Shown here: piece after piece, positions 5,460 to 56,084 of the stretch | How the letters are laid out: every line of letters begins with the position of its first letter | Numbering within the stretch: the stretch's first letter is position 1 | NCBI GenBank assembly: GCA_036004445.1 | Contig: DASYRL010000012.1 | Coordinates: 23,853-87,852 of the forward strand | Direction of reading: 5' to 3' | Origin: a bacterium | GTDB lineage: Bacteria > Sysuimicrobiota > Sysuimicrobiia > Sysuimicrobiales > Kaftiobacteriaceae | DNA: 64,000 nucleotides | The notes under the pieces: model-generated | Databases searched by the model: none | Told to the model about the DNA's origin: nothing | The model's input: the letters and a program-made list of their open reading frames with translations, nothing else | Position numbers and translations under genes: made by a program

Positions 5460-6437
5460 GTGAAGATGAGACGCATCGGTGTCCTGACAAGCGGCGGCGA
5501 CGCGCCGGGCATGAATGCGGCCATCCGCGCCGTCGTGCGCGCGGGGATCGCGGCGGGGGTCGAGGTCTGGGGGGTAGGGCACGGGTACACTGGTCTAATC
5601 GCAGGCGAGCTGAGACCGCTCGGGCCGCGGGACGTCGGCGGCATCATCCACCAGGCCGGCACGGTCCTGCACAGCTCCCGCTGTGAGGACTTCTTTCATG
5701 ACGCCGGACGGCGCGAAGCCATCGAGACCATCGGGCAGTACGGCCTCAGCGGCCTGGTCGTCGTGGGAGGTAGTGGATCGCAGCGCGGGGCCGCGGACCT
5801 ATCAGCGATGGGCGTCCCCGTCGTGGGCGTGGCGTCGACGATCGACAACGACATTTACGGAGCCGACATCAGCATCGGCGTGGACACCGCGCTCAACATC
5901 GCGCTGGAGGCGATCGATCGGTTGAAGATGACGGCGTCCTCGCTGCAGCGCGCCTTCCTCGTCGAGGTCATGGGGCGGGACTGCGGCTACCTGGCGTTGA
6001 TGGCGGGGCTGGCCGGCGGGGCAGAGACCATCGTCATCCCTGAAGTCGAGACGGATCCTGCGGCCGTGTTCGCAGAGCTCGCAGCCTCAGCCGACCGAGG
6101 CAAGCTGCACGCCTTTGTCGTCGTCGCCGAGGGCGCAGCCTACAACGCGGAACGGCTCATCGCGTATGCGCGAGAGCATCGCCAGGCCATCGGGTTCGAG
6201 CTGCGCGCCACGATCCTTGGCCACGTCCAGCGAGGCGGGAGTCCGACCGCGTTCGACCGCCTGCTGGCCACCCGCGCGGGAGCGGCGGCGGCCCAGGCGC
6301 TCCACGACGGGACGCACGGTGTGATGTTCGGTCTGCGCGACGGAGCAATCGCAGCGACTCCGCTGGTCGACGTGAAGGCCCGGCGGAAGGAGCTCGATCT
6401 GCGGCTGCTCGAGCTGGCGCGGATCATGGCGACCTAG
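5460..6437 (+). CDS. pfkA: ATP-dependent 6-phosphofructokinase
   Basis: GVLTSGGDAPGMNAAIRAVV, GGSGS, MGRDCGYLAL motifs, about 325 aa. Confidence 0.93.
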   Translation: MKMRRIGVLTSGGDAPGMNAAIRAVVRAGIAAGVEVWGVGHGYTGLIAGELRPLGPRDVGGIIHQAGTVLHSSRCEDFFHDAGRREAIETIGQYGLSGLVVVGGSGSQRGAADLSAMGVPVVGVASTIDNDIYGADISIGVDTALNIALEAIDRLKMTASSLQRAFLVEVMGRDCGYLALMAGLAGGAETIVIPEVETDPAAVFAELAASADRGKLHAFVVVAEGAAYNAERLIAYAREHRQAIGFELRATILGHVQRGGSPTAFDRLLATRAGAAAAQALHDGTHGVMFGLRDGAIAATPLVDVKARRKELDLRLLELARIMAT

Positions 6438-6438
6438 G

Positions 6439-6477
6439 CCGGGAACCGGGAACTGGGAACAGGGAACAGTGAACCGG
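6439..6477. repeat. tandem GGGAACNG x5 array in the 42-nt spacer between pfkA and the aldolase gene
   Basis: ccgggaaccgggaactgggaacagggaacagtgaaccgg; complementary-type array (GTTCCC units) lies at 18455..18484. Confidence 0.8.
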
Positions 6478-6479
6478 CC

Positions 6480-7499
6480 ATGAGCGACCAACGACGAACG
6501 ACGAACGACGATCGGAACCTCAGCATCGGCAAGCTGCGGGGCCTGCAGCAGTTATCCGATGGCCGCGGCATCTTTGCCATGTGCGCGATGGACCATCGCG
6601 GGTCCCTCCGCAGGATGCTCAACCCCGCGGCGCCGGGCCAGGTACGCGCCCCCGACATCACTACCTTCAAACTGGACCTCGCTGAGATGCTCGCACCTAC
6701 GGCCACGGCGGTCCTGCTCGATCCAATCTACGGCGCCGCCCAGGCCGTTGCGGCCGGGGTGCTGCCGGGACACACCGGCCTGATCGTTTCGGCGGAGGAA
6801 TCCGGATATGAGGAAACGCCGGCCGGCCGGATCACCACGCTCCTCCCAGACTGGAGCGTGGCCAAGATCAGACGCATGGGCGCGTCGGGAGTCAAACTGC
6901 TCCTGTACTATCGGCCCGACCGCGCGGAGTCGGCTGCCCGCCAGCGCGCCGTCGTCGATGGCGTCGCGGCCGCGGCGGCGGACGCGGATCTGCCGTTCGT
7001 GCTGGAGCCGCTCCTCTACGCGCTGACAGCATCCGAACGGTCCTCAGAAAGCCTGGGCGGAATTCGCGCCGATCTCGTTGCGCAGTCGGCTGCGGAACTG
7101 GCACCGCGGGGGCCGGACATATTAAAGGTAGAGTTTCCCGGCCGCGGGCTTGGACCCGAGCGCTGGGCCGAAGTGTGCGCCCGGCTGGACGAGACCACGC
7201 CGATCCCCTGGGTCCTGCTCAGCGGCGGGGCCGGGTACGACGAGTTCCTCCGCTGGGTCGAAGCGGCATGTCGCGCCGGGGCCTCCGGATTCCTCGGCGG
7301 CCGCGCGGTCTGGGAGGACGCGGCATCTCTTGACCGCGGCTCTCGCCGGCGTTGGCTCCAGACTACCGGCGCGGACCGGATGCGCCGCCTCTCCGACATC
7401 GCCGGCGAATTCGGCCGGCCCTGGTGGAAGAAATACGCGGAGCGCTCCTCTGACCTCGCAACTCCTGACGCCCTTTGGTATCGGACATACGGATCGTAA
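6480..7499 (+). CDS. class I aldolase of the LacD family (tagatose-1,6-bisphosphate aldolase family)
   Basis: FAMCAMDHRGSL...LDP...KLLLYYRP...KVEFPG blocks typical of LacD-type class I aldolases; first codons are tandem CGACGAA repeats. Confidence 0.75.
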   Translation: MSDQRRTTNDDRNLSIGKLRGLQQLSDGRGIFAMCAMDHRGSLRRMLNPAAPGQVRAPDITTFKLDLAEMLAPTATAVLLDPIYGAAQAVAAGVLPGHTGLIVSAEESGYEETPAGRITTLLPDWSVAKIRRMGASGVKLLLYYRPDRAESAARQRAVVDGVAAAAADADLPFVLEPLLYALTASERSSESLGGIRADLVAQSAAELAPRGPDILKVEFPGRGLGPERWAEVCARLDETTPIPWVLLSGGAGYDEFLRWVEAACRAGASGFLGGRAVWEDAASLDRGSRRRWLQTTGADRMRRLSDIAGEFGRPWWKKYAERSSDLATPDALWYRTYGS

Positions 7500-50244: not shown

Positions 50245-51066
50245 ATGAGAAGCCGAGGCATCGTATGGTGGGCACTCCTGCTGGCCGTGGCCCTGGCCGT
50301 CGTCGGGTGCCAGCGGCAGCAGGCGGAGCAGCCTGCACCGGCTCCCCAGCCGGCGTCGCAGTTGCCGGACCTGGGTGGGCGGACGGTCCGGGTCGCGACG
50401 GATGCAACCTATCCGCCGTTCGAAATGCTCGACGCGAGTAAGACCATCATCGGATACGACATCGACCTGATCACCGAGGTCTGCAAGCTCGTCAACTGTA
50501 AGCCCGACATCAAGAGCACCGCCTGGGACGGGATCTTCCCGGCGTTGCAGAAGGGCGACTACGACGCCGTGATCTCCGGGGTGACCATCACCGCGGAGCG
50601 CGACAAGACCATGGACTTCAGCGATCCGTACATCGAGGTGGGGCAGGTCGTGCTCGTGCGCGCCGACGAGACCCGCATCACCGGGGTCAACGATTTAACC
50701 GAGCGGACCCTCGCCGTCCAGCGCGGCACGACCAACGACGAAGCCGCGACCAAGATGCAGAAGGAGGGGAAGGTCAAGGAGGTCAAGCGCTTTCCGACCT
50801 TCGACCTGGCGGTGAAGTCGCTGCTCAACGGCGACGTCGACGCCGTCATCATCGACAACACGGCTGCGTCCGGCTACATGGGGACCAATCCGGACAAGCT
50901 GAAGATCGCCGGTGACAAGTTCACCAGCGAGGGGCTGGGCATTGTCGTCCGCGAGGGCGACAAGGAGCTGCAGGGCGCATTTAACGCCGCGCTGAAGACG
51001 CTGAAGGAGAACGGGACGCTGGACCGGCTCTACCAGAAGTGGTTCGTCGAGTATAAGCCGTCTTAA
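50245..51066 (+). CDS. amino-acid ABC transporter substrate-binding protein (family 3)
   Basis: Signal peptide, [17 protein letters not shown] motifs. Confidence 0.88.
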
Positions 51067-51073
51067 CGGCGGC

Positions 51074-51913
51074 ATGGATCCCACGCCGTCCGGTCCGGTG
51101 CCGGAGCTGACCGAGCACCCCGGCCGCGGCCGGCTGGTCTCGGTCGCCTTGCTGGAGAGGGCCCCCTGGTGGGCCCTCGTCCTGCTTATCGGCGGCATCG
51201 CCGCGGTCACGGCGATGTTGCGTTCGCCGGTGTACGTGGAGACCTACGACTTCCTCGCGCCGGCGATCCTCGTCACGCTCCAGCTCGCCGTGTACGCCTA
51301 CGTGGTGGCGATGCTGCTGGGGCTGATCGCGGCGCTGGGGCAGATCTCCAAGAACCCCTTCGTCTCCACGCCCGCCCGGCTGTACGTCGAGGTGATCCGG
51401 GGCGTCCCGCTGCTGGTGCAGATCATCTACATCGCCTTCGTGCTGACGCCGGCGCTCGCCGATCTGTTTCGCGGCGCAGGCCTGGCGTCGGTCGGCCTAT
51501 GGTTCCGCCGCGACATCGTGCGCGCCGTGCTGGCCCTGGGCATCGGCTACGGCGCGTACCTGGCGGAGGTGTACCGGGCGGGGATTCAGTCGATCGGCAG
51601 GGGCCAGACCGAGGCCGCCCGCTCGCTGGGGATGACGCCGTGGCAGACGATGCGGTACGTCGTCCTGCCCCAGGCGATCCGCGTGATCCTGCCGCCGCTG
51701 GGGAATGACTTCGTGTCCATGCTGAAGGACTCATCGCTGGCGTCGGTGATCTCGGTGCAGGAGCTCACCTACAGCGGTCAGCTGCTCAACGCGCGAACGT
51801 TCCGCTCATTCGAGACGTACAACATGGTGGCGCTGTTGTACCTGATCATGACGTTGGCCGGGTCGCTCGGCGTGCGTGGGCTGGAGCGGTGGGCGTCGAG
51901 GGGGAAGCACTAA
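51074..51913 (+). CDS. amino-acid ABC transporter permease (His/Glu/Gln/Arg family)
   Basis: EAA loop region EAARSLGMTPWQTMRYVVLPQA. Confidence 0.88.
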   Translation: MDPTPSGPVPELTEHPGRGRLVSVALLERAPWWALVLLIGGIAAVTAMLRSPVYVETYDFLAPAILVTLQLAVYAYVVAMLLGLIAALGQISKNPFVSTPARLYVEVIRGVPLLVQIIYIAFVLTPALADLFRGAGLASVGLWFRRDIVRAVLALGIGYGAYLAEVYRAGIQSIGRGQTEAARSLGMTPWQTMRYVVLPQAIRVILPPLGNDFVSMLKDSSLASVISVQELTYSGQLLNARTFRSFETYNMVALLYLIMTLAGSLGVRGLERWASRGKH

Positions 51914-51931: not shown

Positions 51932-51963
51932 CCATGAACCCGAGCGCAGCGAGTGGTTCATGG
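51932..51963. repeat. REP-like 32-nt hairpin, copy 2, sharing the CCA of tRNA-Val
   Basis: ccatgaacc-cgagcgcagcgagt-ggttcatgg; stem carries an A:T pair where copy 1 has C:G. Confidence 0.8.
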
Positions 51964-52037
51964 TGGGCGGTAGAGGACTTGAACCTCTGACCTCATCCAT
52001 GTCAAGGATGCGCTCTAGCCAGCTGAGCTAACCGCCC
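51961..52037 (-). tRNA. tRNA-Val (anticodon GAC)
   Basis: Reverse complement GGGCGGTTAGCTCAGCTGGCTAGAGC...anticodon loop TTGACAT...GGTTCAAGTCC...ACCGCCCACCA. Confidence 0.9.
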
Positions 52038-52090
52038 CCCCGGCCTTCTATTATACGTGGTGGATGGCGAGCCGTGAACCGAGGTGGCAG

Positions 52091-52636
52091 ATGACGAAAC
52101 GCATCATCGCAGTGCTGGTGTTGATGGTTGCGGCGGCGCCGGGGCTCAGCCGGGCCGGCGCCCCACCATACCCGCCGGACATCGCCCCAGCAAGGCAGAT
52201 CGGCCCCGGTTCCCACATCGGTCCGTGGACGCTGGCGATGGGTATTGGGGGGCTGCGCCGGGCGCTCGGCGAGCCGGCGTCATCGGCGCCCCGCCCGATG
52301 TTCGACCAGCAGGCCGGCTGGACGGGGTACGTCTGGACCGTCCCGGACGGCACCCTGACCGCCTGGGCCCGCGACGGCAAGACCATCGGCTACCTCGAAC
52401 TGCGCGACAGCCGCGCCTTCCGCACCAGCAAGTTGATTGGTGTGGGGTCCACGAACCTGGACGTCGAGGCCGCGTACGGACCGGCACCGGTCCGGACTTC
52501 CATCCCCGGGGCCTCGCGCTACATCTACAATGCCCTCGGGCTGGCGGTGTTCACCCAGGGAACGTCCAGCGGATTCATCGCCGTGGCCGTCGCCATCTTC
52601 CCGCCCGGCACCGCGGCGAAGTTCTGGAAGTTCTAG
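52091..52636 (+). CDS. secreted hypothetical protein, likely co-transcribed with the channel gene
   Basis: ATG 52091 behind GAGGTGG; signal peptide MTKRIIAVLVLMVAAAPGLSRAGA; stop abuts the next ATG (tagATG). Confidence 0.5.
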   Translation: MTKRIIAVLVLMVAAAPGLSRAGAPPYPPDIAPARQIGPGSHIGPWTLAMGIGGLRRALGEPASSAPRPMFDQQAGWTGYVWTVPDGTLTAWARDGKTIGYLELRDSRAFRTSKLIGVGSTNLDVEAAYGPAPVRTSIPGASRYIYNALGLAVFTQGTSSGFIAVAVAIFPPGTAAKFWKF

Positions 52637-53602
52637 ATGAAGCGTCTGCTCCTCGCGGCGATGTGCGCAGTGTACGCGGGCATGATCCCAGCCGCGCACG
52701 CGGCGGCCCCGGTTCCACCCGCGACCGTTGCGGACCCGGTGCAGGTGAGAGTCGGAACGTATCTCCTCAACCTCGGACGCCTCGACACGGGCACCGGCAC
52801 CTACACGATGGATGTGTACATCAGCATGACCTGCGATCGTCCGTGCGATCCGACGGCGTTCGAGATCATGAATGGCCGGGCGACGGAGCGCGTGATGGTC
52901 GACAATAAGCCGCGGCGGAAGGTCTTCCGGCTGCAGGCCTCGCTGTCCTCGGAGATGGACCTGCGGAACTATCCGTTCGATACGCACATGCTCGGGATCG
53001 TCATCGAAGACGGCAAGCTCGCCGCCGCGGGGGAGGTCGGACAGACCACCGATGATCAGATCTACCTCGTCGAGGCAGCGAAGAGCGGGATCGCGCCGAC
53101 GGTCCGCGTGGCGGGTTGGGAGGTCAACCACCTCTGGCGGGCCACCACCACCGACGTCTTCTACGCGCCGTTTGGCGAGACGTACTCCCGCTACCAGTTC
53201 GCCGTACGGATCTACCGCCCGGTGCTCAGCGCCGTCCTCAAAGTGGTCCTGCCCGCGATCTTTCTGGTCATCGTCGGGCTGGTCTCGCTGCTGCTGGCGC
53301 CGGATAAGGTCACCCAGCGTCTCACCGTGGGGACATCCGCCCTGGTCGGCTCCGTGCTGCTGCACCTCAATCTGACGTCGGCGATTCCACCGGTGGGGTA
53401 CCTGACGTTTGCCGACAAGTTCATGCTGTTTAACTACGTACCGCTGGTGCTCGCGATCGTCGCGAGCGTCGTCATGCTGTGGTTTACCGACCGCGCGCAG
53501 ACCGACCGCGCGCACCGCGTGCACGTGATCTCAGGGATTTCGATCCCGATCATCTGGGTTGTGCTCCAGGGGATGAACCTGCTGACTCTGGCCGCCCGCT
53601 AG
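52637..53602 (+). CDS. pentameric ligand-gated ion channel (Cys-loop receptor family) homolog
   Basis: Signal peptide, ~200-aa extracellular domain with the YPFD Cys-loop motif (NYPFDTHMLGIVI), then four TM helices with pre-M1 Y..RP..L, M2, and M3 YLTFADKFMLFNYVPLVLAI. Confidence 0.65.
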   Translation: MKRLLLAAMCAVYAGMIPAAHAAAPVPPATVADPVQVRVGTYLLNLGRLDTGTGTYTMDVYISMTCDRPCDPTAFEIMNGRATERVMVDNKPRRKVFRLQASLSSEMDLRNYPFDTHMLGIVIEDGKLAAAGEVGQTTDDQIYLVEAAKSGIAPTVRVAGWEVNHLWRATTTDVFYAPFGETYSRYQFAVRIYRPVLSAVLKVVLPAIFLVIVGLVSLLLAPDKVTQRLTVGTSALVGSVLLHLNLTSAIPPVGYLTFADKFMLFNYVPLVLAIVASVVMLWFTDRAQTDRAHRVHVISGISIPIIWVVLQGMNLLTLAAR

Positions 53603-54690
53603 ACGGCACCGACCCGGTTCCCGCCGGTGCCCTTCACCCGGTACATAGCCCGGTCCGCCGCGTCGAGGAGTTCCTGGCTGCTCGTACCGTCGCGCGGAAA
53701 CGAGGCCATGCCGATACTGGCCGTCAGCGTCATGCCTTCGAGCAGGGAGACGTCCTCGATGTTCGTCCGGATCCGCTCGGCCACGCGCGCGGCCTCGGCG
53801 CGGCTCGTCTGGGGGAGGACCACGACGAACTCGTCGCCCCCGAATCGCGCCACGAAGTCCGAGTCGCGGCTGGACCGCTGCAGGGCGGCGGCCAGCTGGC
53901 GCAGCAGGTCGTCGGCGCGCAGGTGGCCGTGGCGGTCGTTGATGTCCTTGAAGCCGTCGAGATCGACGACGACGACCACGAGCTGGGTATCATACCGGGC
54001 GGCGCGCTGGAGCTCGCGCTTCAGGTGCTCCCGCAGGGCCCGGCGGTTGCCGAGGCCGGTCAGTGGATCGGTCAGCGCAAGGCGGCTGATCTGCCGGATC
54101 TGGAACCGCATGCTGGAGAGCACCAGGGCGACGGCGTAGAACATCCCGATGTAACTGATCAGAAACGCTGCGGCCGTCTGCATGGCCCAGCGTGGGCCGC
54201 TGAACGGCACGACCCCGGCCTGGACGAGGATCGTCGAGGTTACCAGCAGGACCGTGCTGAGCGTCGCGCTGGCCAGGGCCGCGGCGGGTCCCCGCAGCAT
54301 CGCCTCGACAGCCATCGACAGCGCGTACACCCACACGAACGGACTCTGCACGCCGCCGGTGTACGTGATGCCGATCGACAGCAGCACGAGCGCCGCGACC
54401 ATGTGTGTCAAGGGCATCCAGGCCTGGTAGCGTCCTTCGCCGATCAGGCGCTCCTGGATGCGCGTGAAGGCCACCACCGCCGCCGCAATTCCGACGACCA
54501 GCCACAGCGGTACCGCGGCACCGGCGACCCGCGCCAGGAGAATGATGACGACGACGAGGCCGGTCGCACCCAGGGTCAGGCGCAGCCCGATGCGGTGGGC
54601 GAAGACAGGACTCTCCGCCGCGGCAAACCATGAGGCCGCCAGGGGGGAGGTTTCTTGATCCTCGGGGGGCTCGGGATCGCGCTCCCTCAC
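53599..54690 (-). CDS. membrane-anchored diguanylate cyclase (5-6 TM N-terminal domain + GGDEF)
   Basis: GGDEF signature RFGGDEFVVVL, upstream DLDGFKDINDRHGH; GTG 54690 start behind GGAAG chosen; ORF N-terminal extension to 55050 rejected as low-complexity. Confidence 0.78.
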   Translation of the reverse strand: MRERDPEPPEDQETSPLAASWFAAAESPVFAHRIGLRLTLGATGLVVVIILLARVAGAAVPLWLVVGIAAAVVAFTRIQERLIGEGRYQAWMPLTHMVAALVLLSIGITYTGGVQSPFVWVYALSMAVEAMLRGPAAALASATLSTVLLVTSTILVQAGVVPFSGPRWAMQTAAAFLISYIGMFYAVALVLSSMRFQIRQISRLALTDPLTGLGNRRALREHLKRELQRAARYDTQLVVVVVDLDGFKDINDRHGHLRADDLLRQLAAALQRSSRDSDFVARFGGDEFVVVLPQTSRAEAARVAERIRTNIEDVSLLEGMTLTASIGMASFPRDGTSSQELLDAADRAMYRVKGTGGNRVGAV

Positions 54691-55325: not shown

Positions 55326-55874
55326 TCAGTCGACCGTAAAGGTGAAATCGGGGGCCGGGAACCGCAGGAACCCGACCTGCACCGCCCACTCCAGCGTGTT
55401 TGTCCCCCGCACGAGCGGCAGGGTGATGCCGAAATTCCCCCGCGTCACCGAACCCCGCGCCATGCTCTTGGCCTCGACGTGATTGACGATCACCGTGGCC
55501 GTGGGGTGGGACTTGATCGTCAGTGCGCCGGTCACTGCCGCCGCCATCTTCGTCAGGTCCAGGTCGATGCTCAGCCATTCCACGTACTTGGTGGCGCCGC
55601 GGGGCAGGTCGAATCTCAGCCGCCGCGTCTGTCCGTCGCTGACCGCGATCAGCGAAATCGGCAGCGTCCCGTTCACCACAAAGGTGCCGTTGTCGTTCGC
55701 GTGCGCAGTAGTCCCCGCGACGGCGATAACCGTGCCCGGCCGCGTCGTCCCGCGGACCTCCACGGTACCCGAGGCCGCCGTGTACTTGAGATCCACCGCC
55801 AGCGGCAGTGGAGTCTGTCCGATCGCCGGGGTCGCCAACAGCAGGGCCACCAGCACCAGCACGATCACCCGCAT
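55326..55874 (-). CDS. secreted hypothetical protein
   Basis: ATG 55874 behind GGAGGAG; signal peptide MRVIVLVLVALLLATPAIGQ; upstream part of track ORF (to 56228) rejected. Confidence 0.55.
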   Translation of the reverse strand: MRVIVLVLVALLLATPAIGQTPLPLAVDLKYTAASGTVEVRGTTRPGTVIAVAGTTAHANDNGTFVVNGTLPISLIAVSDGQTRRLRFDLPRGATKYVEWLSIDLDLTKMAAAVTGALTIKSHPTATVIVNHVEAKSMARGSVTRGNFGITLPLVRGTNTLEWAVQVGFLRFPAPDFTFTVD

Positions 55875-56084
55875 CAATGGTCTCCTCCATGCCCGCGTTA
55901 TGGCCATCACACTCATATCACTACGCAGCGTCTCGTCGCCGAGTTCCAACAGTGCTTCAGTGTACGGGTCTGACAGCGGACCGCATAGGACCTGTGATAG
56001 CGGTGCCGCGCCGATTTGACAACAATCCGGAAATCGACGTATACTGACTTCTGATCGGCGAAGACGAGGACGAGTACGCTGCGT

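Follow-up and report, generated by a model that had tools for sequence, protein, structure and literature searches.

The window analysed here, a 64,000-nucleotide (nt) stretch of bacterial DNA from the family Kaftiobacteriaceae of the Sysuimicrobiota (assembly GCA_036004445.1, contig DASYRL010000012.1, positions 23,853 to 87,852 of the forward strand), encodes a 321-residue protein that is a genuine prokaryotic ligand-gated ion channel of the pentameric type (pLGIC), a bacterial relative of the animal neurotransmitter-gated channels. Its gene (52637-53602, plus strand, stop codon included) is the only pLGIC gene in the window. It is preceded by the gene for a small secreted protein, here termed p181, and is met from the opposite side by a gene for a membrane GGDEF diguanylate cyclase. 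With moderate confidence we favor the reading that the channel works as a homopentamer opened by an extracellular ligand, that p181 is its co-translated, lineage-specific accessory, and that the GGDEF gene is unrelated to both.

Identification of the channel

The first-pass annotation, made from the letters of the sequence, had proposed a channel of the GLIC/ELIC type, and this assignment is borne out by several comparisons. A phmmer search against all PDB chains retrieved GLIC at E-values of 1e-12 to 1e-14 over residues 96-309, and the profile of the subfamily alignment (termed A1; 46 sequences from bacteria and archaea) matched GLIC at 4e-32. The comparison of a predicted structure with known channels, which had been suggested as a check, gave the same answer over the full length of the protein. 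The AlphaFold2 (AF2) model, with a predicted local distance difference test score (pLDDT) of 91.5, consists of a beta-sandwich (strands 35-193) followed by four helices, and Foldseek against the PDB placed GLIC on top (E 1e-22, TM-score 0.77-0.80), followed by glycine and GABA-A receptors, with TM-scores of 0.72-0.80 across the three groups. In single-sequence searches, the Pfam model Neur_chan_memb was matched at E 3.4e-6 (28.0 bits against a cut-off of 28.1) and Neur_chan_LBD at 16.4 bits against a cut-off of 26, while the NCBIfam model NF033918 (LGIC_1) gave 58 bits against its curated cut-off of 500 bits, as expected of a protein related to the LGIC_1 subfamily and not a member of it. These marginal Pfam and sub-cut-off LGIC_1 scores thus indicate a divergent branch outside the named subfamilies.

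The architecture is that described in the first-pass annotation, with a signal peptide, a beta-rich extracellular domain (ECD), the YPFD motif at 112-115 and four transmembrane helices. The signal peptide occupies about residues 1-22 and the beta-sandwich about 33-193, followed by the transmembrane helices M1 (196-219), M2 (225-248), M3 (258-285) and M4 (289-319). In the model, strand beta1 starts at residue 35, with just a short Pro-rich linker between it and the signal peptide, and an N-terminal extra domain is absent.

The superfamily signatures were scored against Table 1 of Jaiteh et al. 2016 (PMC4795631), and all seven positions of that table are kept (Y112, P113, D115, W161, R194, P206 and P251), as is a basic residue at position 0' of M2 (R228). 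The superfamily motif [F/Y]-P-x-D marks the tip of the beta6-beta7 loop, and its Pro is absolutely conserved (PMC4795631). In the window this Pro-loop (Cys-loop) signature, Y112-P113-F114-D115 (52970-52981, plus strand), aligns with Y119-P120-F121-D122 of GLIC in the phmmer alignment. Within A1, P113, F114 and D115 are invariant, and position 112 is Tyr in 41 sequences and Phe in five. The other signature residues, R194 before M1, W161 in beta9, P206 in M1 and P251 between M2 and M3, align with R192, W160, P204 and P247 of GLIC, and R228 falls on the GLIC 0' position, N224 in that protein. In the superfamily, the Arg before M1 pairs by a salt bridge with the Asp of the loop, and the Pro of M1 puts a kink in that helix. 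The patterns Y..RPVLSAVL and YLTFADKFMLF are present exactly as they had been quoted, the first before M1 (Y193-R194-PVLSAVL) and the second in the M2-M3/M3 region (G254-YLTFADKFMLF). The channel has three cysteines, C10 of the signal peptide together with C66 and C70. YPFD is flanked by none of them, and the disulfide around the beta6-beta7 loop by which metazoan Cys-loop receptors are defined is absent, as is usual for prokaryotes.

Extracellular domain and pore of the subfamily

Strong conservation across A1 is found at the ECD residues D59, F75, E76, N79, G80, R81, R98, E124, D125, Y143 and Y176. Since it extends over bacteria and archaea, it argues for a shared extracellular binding function. 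The motif GYLTFADKF of the M2-M3/M3 region is likewise conserved in the subfamily, and a His at position 15' of M2 (H243) is present in 44 of the 46 members. The pair C66-D-R-P-C70 (52832-52846, plus strand) sits at the end of strand beta2, where C66 aligns with W47 of GLIC, a widely conserved Trp position. Both positions are Cys in 41/46 sequences and are lost together in the same five, which form one clade, and the two residues probably form a disulfide. The clade that lacks both cysteines includes a Bipolaricaulota sequence.

An insertion of eight residues, A129-AAGEVG-Q136 (53021-53044, plus strand), lies in the beta7-beta8 loop, the loop B region. It is found in all six members of the clade that carries p181 and in none of the 40 other members of A1. 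Its local pLDDT is 76-79, and its use as a docking site is speculation.

The register of the pore helix M2 (53309-53380, plus strand) was taken from the GLIC alignment. The window protein has the invariant R228 at 0', followed by T2', S6', V9', L13', H243 at 15', N17' and S20', and upstream of these Q(-1') and T(-2'); the corresponding subfamily columns are R0', T/S2', S6', V/L/I at 9', T/Q at -1' and T at -2'. Both the cationic E(-1') filter and the anionic P-A-R filter are missing from the M2 flank, with no Glu at -1' or -2', so that charge selectivity is not readable from the sequence. GLIC-like gating by pH was considered and set aside, because the proton-sensor residues are not conserved: E35 and H235 (11') of GLIC, its proton-sensing residues according to mutagenesis, align with G54 (Gly in 42/46) and S239, respectively.

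Distribution of the subfamily

Species-representative genomes were scanned by means of the alignment, after a scan with the single channel protein had given nothing, and 107 of them match one subfamily motif. The taxonomic breakdown covers the best 80 of these 107 genomes, of which 57 are archaeal (44 from named DPANN groups) and 23 bacterial (Chloroflexota, Bipolaricaulota, Planctomycetota and others). The archaeal share comprises 25 Woesearchaeota, 8 Micrarchaeota/Norongarragalinales, 5 Nanoarchaeota, 3 Iainarchaeum, 3 Aenigmatarchaeota, 4 Methanosarcinales, 1 Bathyarchaeota and 8 unclassified genomes. The subfamily of the channel, itself uncharacterised, has a wide spread among uncultured bacteria and DPANN archaea. 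The rarity attributed earlier to bacterial pentameric channels is an overstatement where metagenomes are concerned, in view of these 107 genomes and of the 164 proteins that pass an E-value of 1e-5 among the scored candidates. A literature search returned no paper linking pLGICs with DPANN and no archaeal pLGIC structure.

Around 77 distant channel loci (L013-L089; subfamily motif GYLT[FL]AD[KR][FV]), no recurrent neighbor family was found beyond generic ABC ATPases. In a sister clade, at 46-48% identity, the pLGIC gene lies inside or beside an oligopeptide-type ABC importer cluster, in the order OppC, pLGIC, SBP_bac_5, OppB, OppC (L173, 1178-2245; the locus of P0014; L023, 1952-4870). In the lineage of the window, an SBP_bac_5/OppB/OppC cluster is located on the opposite strand, at least 2.6 kb upstream. 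This importer adjacency may go back to an ancestral gene order, or it may echo the association with PBP-II proteins described by Tasneem et al. A general link between channel and solute-binding protein in the subfamily was rejected, as homologs of SBP_bac_3, SBP_bac_5 and the permeases occurred near the distant channels only in L023, and the link therefore holds for the sister clade alone.

The upstream secreted protein and its pairing with the channel

The p181 gene (52091-52636, plus strand, from the list of open reading frames (ORFs) and public gene calls) encodes 181 residues that include no Cys and end in a conserved FWKF, and residues 1-19 are hydrophobic and signal-like. The ratio of nonsynonymous to synonymous substitution rates (dN/dS) of p181 is 0.21-0.32, in the same range as that of the channel, and both are under purifying selection. 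This ratio, the hydrophobic N-terminus and a conserved GAGG before the start codon identify p181 as a real gene. The first-pass annotation had described a secreted protein of 182 residues whose stop codon is overlapped by the channel start. Its secreted nature and the tagATG junction stand, yet the protein has 181 residues, and its TAG abuts the channel ATG with a gap of 0 nt and no overlap.

This junction (ttctggaagttc-TAG-ATG; 52619-52642, plus strand) is a constant feature of the lineage. At 13/13 lineage loci the gene immediately upstream of the channel is p181, and the sequence ...TGGAAGTTC-TAG-ATG is present in every one of them that covers the boundary. An 18-nt junction, ttctggaagttcTAGATG, is identical in 11/11 lineage loci examined (7 distinct after merging of duplicate contigs), despite synonymous divergence (dS) of 0.5-1.3 between the genomes that bear it. 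A GGAAG lies inside the W-K codons of p181, 7-11 nt before the channel ATG. In each genome pair, dN of p181 and of the channel are nearly equal, and the block of tRNA-Val, p181 and channel stays intact while its flanks vary, with globin, Transgly_assoc, GYD or TGT on one side and GGDEF present or absent on the other. Co-transcription of p181 and channel is supported, and the two are probably also coupled in translation.

Outside the lineage the pair is not found. A hidden Markov model of p181 detected no relative in the 77 other pLGIC loci, and the nearest outgroup channels (47-51% identity) and the sister clade are without p181. As the rest of the channel subfamily does without it, p181 is dispensable for the subfamily and would stand outside the basic mechanism. 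Seen from either gene, the pairing is confined to the lineage, the 80 loci of the wider p181 family described below being likewise free of a pLGIC. Close homologs of p181 number five among 5.8 billion proteins, all within the lineage of the window.

The window p181 has no sequence match in Pfam, NCBIfam or the PDB. A profile search at E<=1e-3 extended the family to 252 representatives, secreted proteins of about 170-190 residues, and among 53 aligned members there were weak matches to DUF7738 (PF24880; 17/53, best E 8.6e-6) and to BamE (PF04355; 4/53, best E 1.3e-3). Members of this wider family carry LIVPGxRIGxW after the signal peptide and end in ...VFRPGTAxxIW[KR]F, and the family sometimes forms the C-terminal domain of larger proteins (P0137, 466 residues; P0143, 757 residues). 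The AF2 model of p181, built from 6 sequences, has a pLDDT of 51 and displays a helix-plus-beta-sheet repeat pattern. With this poor model, Foldseek ranked BLIP-like, DUF4309 and CAP-associated structures first, none of them significant, which hints at a BamE/BLIP-like fold; an internal repeat sought by BLASTP was not significant (E 0.34). From its sequence, p181 appears to be a divergent member, or a lineage-specific recruit, of the wider family of small secreted proteins. Metagenomes were scanned for this family with a 12-sequence subset, the 53-sequence alignment being too diverse, and the 80 loci obtained (L092-L171, 368 kb) include 22 with at least two copies.

The convergent GGDEF gene

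The gene that converges on the channel (53599-54690, minus strand, GTG start at 54690) encodes 363 residues according to public gene calls; the 483-residue ORF of the mechanical list is over-extended. It matches Pfam PF00990 at E 1.2e-46 and TIGR00254 at E 4.8e-49, with an intact GGDEF motif at residue 284, an RxxD I-site at 275, five residues upstream, and at least four hydrophobic segments in the first 190 residues. By these features it encodes a bona fide polytopic membrane diguanylate cyclase. The stop codons of the two genes share 4 nt (ctag, 53599-53602), so that the overlap reported earlier is real in the window; in relatives it is replaced by a gap of 3-4 nt. No terminator was found by a scan between the two convergent genes.

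Adjacency of the GGDEF gene to the channel is limited to the closest relatives (L001-L006, L010 and L011). In L007, L008, L009 and L012, which represent one branch of the lineage, the p181/channel pair is kept without an adjacent GGDEF gene, and Dtd lies directly downstream; the 77 distant channel loci have no GGDEF neighbor either. The trio does not co-occur beyond the closest relatives, and neither the conserved synteny nor the signalling module with a c-di-GMP enzyme that had been envisaged is upheld. The cyclase is judged to be a bystander, an unrelated neighbor.

Genomic setting of the locus

The ORF listing, a direct reading and the public gene calls for a metagenome contig of identical sequence (L090) yield one and the same order of the genes, and in those calls the three genes have lengths of 181, 321 and 363 residues. 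The channel protein is deposited in identical form as a hypothetical protein of a soil metagenome-assembled genome (MAG). GC content is even, at about 0.67, and the ThrRS encoded downstream shares 78% identity with its counterpart in Candidatus Segetimicrobium genomatis (phylum Ca. Sysuimicrobiota, CSP1-3; kingdom Bacillati).

On its upstream side the operon is bounded by a divergent gene for tRNA-Val(GAC) (51961-52037, minus strand; ARAGORN, and 67.9 bits in Rfam). Every lineage locus tested has it in this position, with 46-56 nt between it and p181, and an Rfam scan detected tRNAs only. The divergent intergenic region of 53 nt (52038-52090) was studied by a promoter scan and by alignment of six lineage loci, across which both ATTATACG (which reads TATAAT on the minus strand and forms the -10 box of the tRNA) and the GAGG Shine-Dalgarno sequence before the p181 ATG are invariant. 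These two elements favor the ATG at 52091 over that at 52064 as the start of p181. A promoter-like site on the minus strand (52078..52050) matches 10/12 positions. The divergent arrangement of tRNA-Val and p181 with the invariant TATAAT box was seen in L001, L004, L007, L009, L010 and L012. Beyond the 3' end of the tRNA, relatives vary, having nothing, Transgly_assoc, globin plus Transgly_assoc, GYD or TGT, which suggests an insertion hot spot at this point. A reading of the tRNA as the sign of an integrated island that carries the channel was rejected, the channel being on the 5' side of the tRNA and the GC content unremarkable; the gene gains and losses of relatives, which sit on the 3' side, also oppose it.

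Further upstream of the tRNA (50245-51913, plus strand), an SBP_bac_3 amino-acid-binding protein and a single ABC permease, both recognised by Pfam, are encoded with no adjoining ATPase gene, as a pair that is conserved in the lineage; the SBP_bac_3 protein also matches the Lig_chan-Glu_bd model of ionotropic glutamate receptor type. Downstream of the GGDEF gene follow Dtd and ThrRS (Pfam), and between them (about 55326-55875, minus strand), in the same position in all lineage loci, lies the gene for a further secreted protein of about 182 residues (MRVIVLVLVALLLATPAIGQ...) with no Pfam match, of which a listed 300-residue ORF is an over-extended version. The channel gene of L012 (5896-6857; MAG SMAG_U7955) is broken up into two ORFs that overlap (5896-6645 and 6642-6857), either as a frameshift pseudogene or through an assembly error.

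Proposed mechanism and alternative explanations

Under the reading that we favor, the signal peptide of the channel would be cleaved, the beta-sandwich would face the outside of the cytoplasmic membrane, and the four helices would span the membrane. Five subunits would then form a central pore lined by M2 through T2', S6', V9' and L13'. By analogy with the family, a small molecule or an ion from outside the cell would be bound at the conserved subunit interfaces, and the pore would open through the coupling network of YPFD, the pre-M1 Arg and the M2-M3 Pro. p181 would be made from the same transcript as the channel, probably by translational coupling, and may act outside the membrane, presumably in contact with the channel, in its assembly, stabilisation or modulation. 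Such an accessory role outside the membrane is the most likely one for p181.

Several points weigh against this reading. Pentamer formation, gating and conduction are predicted from homology alone, and with a model pLDDT of 51 the fold assignment of p181 is tentative. The GGAAG before the channel start stems from W-K codons that are conserved family-wide, and it is thus not independent evidence for coupling. The entire neighborhood is syntenic in one lineage, so shared ancestry explains much of the conservation of the pair, which counts as a single evolutionary event. In addition, the 80 loci with members of the wider p181 family contain no pLGIC and no recurrent neighbor beyond generic ABC ATPases. 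Support for the dedicated partner of the first-pass annotation is weak: the pair is kept within the lineage, at all 13 loci, and is missing outside it, at 0/77 channel loci and 0/80 loci of the p181 family.

The same observations bear on the explanation that p181 is an unrelated passenger of the operon, a generic secreted envelope protein that has by chance come under one promoter with the channel and whose adjacency to it is kept by vertical inheritance. The syntenic neighborhood and the lack of a partner at the 77 other channel loci are what would be expected of a passenger, as is the context of the wider family, which is variable, often multi-copy and never near a pLGIC. Yet the junction is invariant even at synonymous sites while dS elsewhere is 0.5-1.3, the pair survives the gain and loss of flanking genes, and dN of the two genes tracks closely, and we therefore hold a mere passenger to be decidedly unlikely. 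A stronger association would make p181 an obligate auxiliary subunit or ligand presenter, which docks on the ECD, for example at the loop-B insertion, and delivers an agonist or gates or modulates the channel. With this would agree the 0-nt junction and the strict co-occurrence within the lineage, as well as the eight-residue insertion beside the canonical agonist site, confined to the p181 clade (6/6 against 0/40). BLIP/BamE-like folds are typically protein-binding modules, the fold itself being a hint in the present case. pLGIC operons with stand-alone periplasmic sensor proteins also offer a precedent (PMC549065). Against it, insertion and partner amount to one evolutionary event (n = 1), p181 has no small-molecule-binding domain recognisable by Pfam or NCBIfam, and the clade keeps the subfamily-wide ECD residues, which points to a direct ligand shared with the relatives that lack the partner. 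An obligate subunit is on balance rather unlikely. A three-gene module, in which the secreted protein senses, the channel converts the signal into ion flux and the GGDEF cyclase into c-di-GMP, is very improbable. It draws on the adjacency with the 4-nt convergent overlap in the window and on the retention of the cyclase in the closest relatives, but the cyclase is absent from one branch in which the pair is intact and from all distant channel loci, the overlap is not conserved, and the convergent orientation means separate transcription. GGDEF genes are, moreover, abundant in bacterial genomes.

Comparison with known systems and significance

The closest solved relative of the window channel, and its best match in both sequence and fold, is GLIC, the proton-gated pLGIC of Gloeobacter violaceus (e.g. 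PDB 3EAM). Both proteins have about 320 residues and the same succession of signal peptide, ECD and four transmembrane helices, and both have a Cys-less Pro-loop, without an N-terminal extra domain or a long M3-M4 loop. R98 and R81 of the window channel align with R105 and R85 of GLIC, which line the carboxylate-binding pockets of that protein. The identity between the two is, however, only about 20%, and the GLIC residues E35, H235 (11') and E(-2') are replaced by G54, S239 and Thr, while GLIC lacks H243 at 15', the CxxxC pair after beta2, the FE-MNGR motif and the clade-specific eight-residue loop-B insertion.

Tasneem et al. 2005 described predicted operons in which bacterial pLGICs are accompanied by PBP-II or Cache proteins that stand alone (PMC549065), and a pLGIC with a stand-alone periplasmic partner has thus been known since 2005. 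The present locus resembles those operons in that a pLGIC gene shares its operon with the gene of a protein, secreted or periplasmic, for which cooperation with the receptor is proposed (PMC549065), yet the partner family is different, p181 being neither PBP-II nor Cache by Pfam and NCBIfam. The window does hold a PBP-II gene, the SBP_bac_3 gene, but it lies 1.6 kb upstream and is separated from the operon by the permease gene and the opposite-strand tRNA gene, whereas in the sister clade SBP_bac_5/Opp genes follow directly after the channel. In DeCLIC, from Desulfofustis, an N-terminal periplasmic module modulates gating (PMC9897478). That module is fused in cis, whereas the window channel has no N-terminal domain, and any such module would be a separate polypeptide with a hypothetical interaction. 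p181 itself is like BamE, BLIP-like and DUF7738 proteins in size, signal peptide and helix-plus-beta-sheet repeat pattern, while the window protein matches no model of BamE or DUF7738, and all similarity is below or near the thresholds of significance.

GLIC, ELIC, sTeLIC and DeCLIC are structural workhorses for the neurotransmitter receptors, although their native ligands and roles are almost unknown. To these the window channel adds a well-modelled member of an uncharacterised subfamily, whose unusually well conserved ECD should make ligand hunting tractable. The assignment of the channel is secure, though expected in kind, and the further element of the locus is p181 as a possible lineage-specific accessory protein. 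That p181, as a BamE/BLIP-like protein, should dock on the clade-specific loop-B insertion beside the agonist site and gate or tune the channel, which would make it the first auxiliary subunit to act in trans on a prokaryotic pLGIC from the extracellular side, we consider unlikely. If p181 were a true auxiliary subunit, it would offer a simple two-component model for the modulation of pLGICs by accessory proteins, as a stand-alone counterpart of the fused N-terminal domain of DeCLIC or of the modulators of Ly6/Lynx type that act on the nicotinic receptors of animals.

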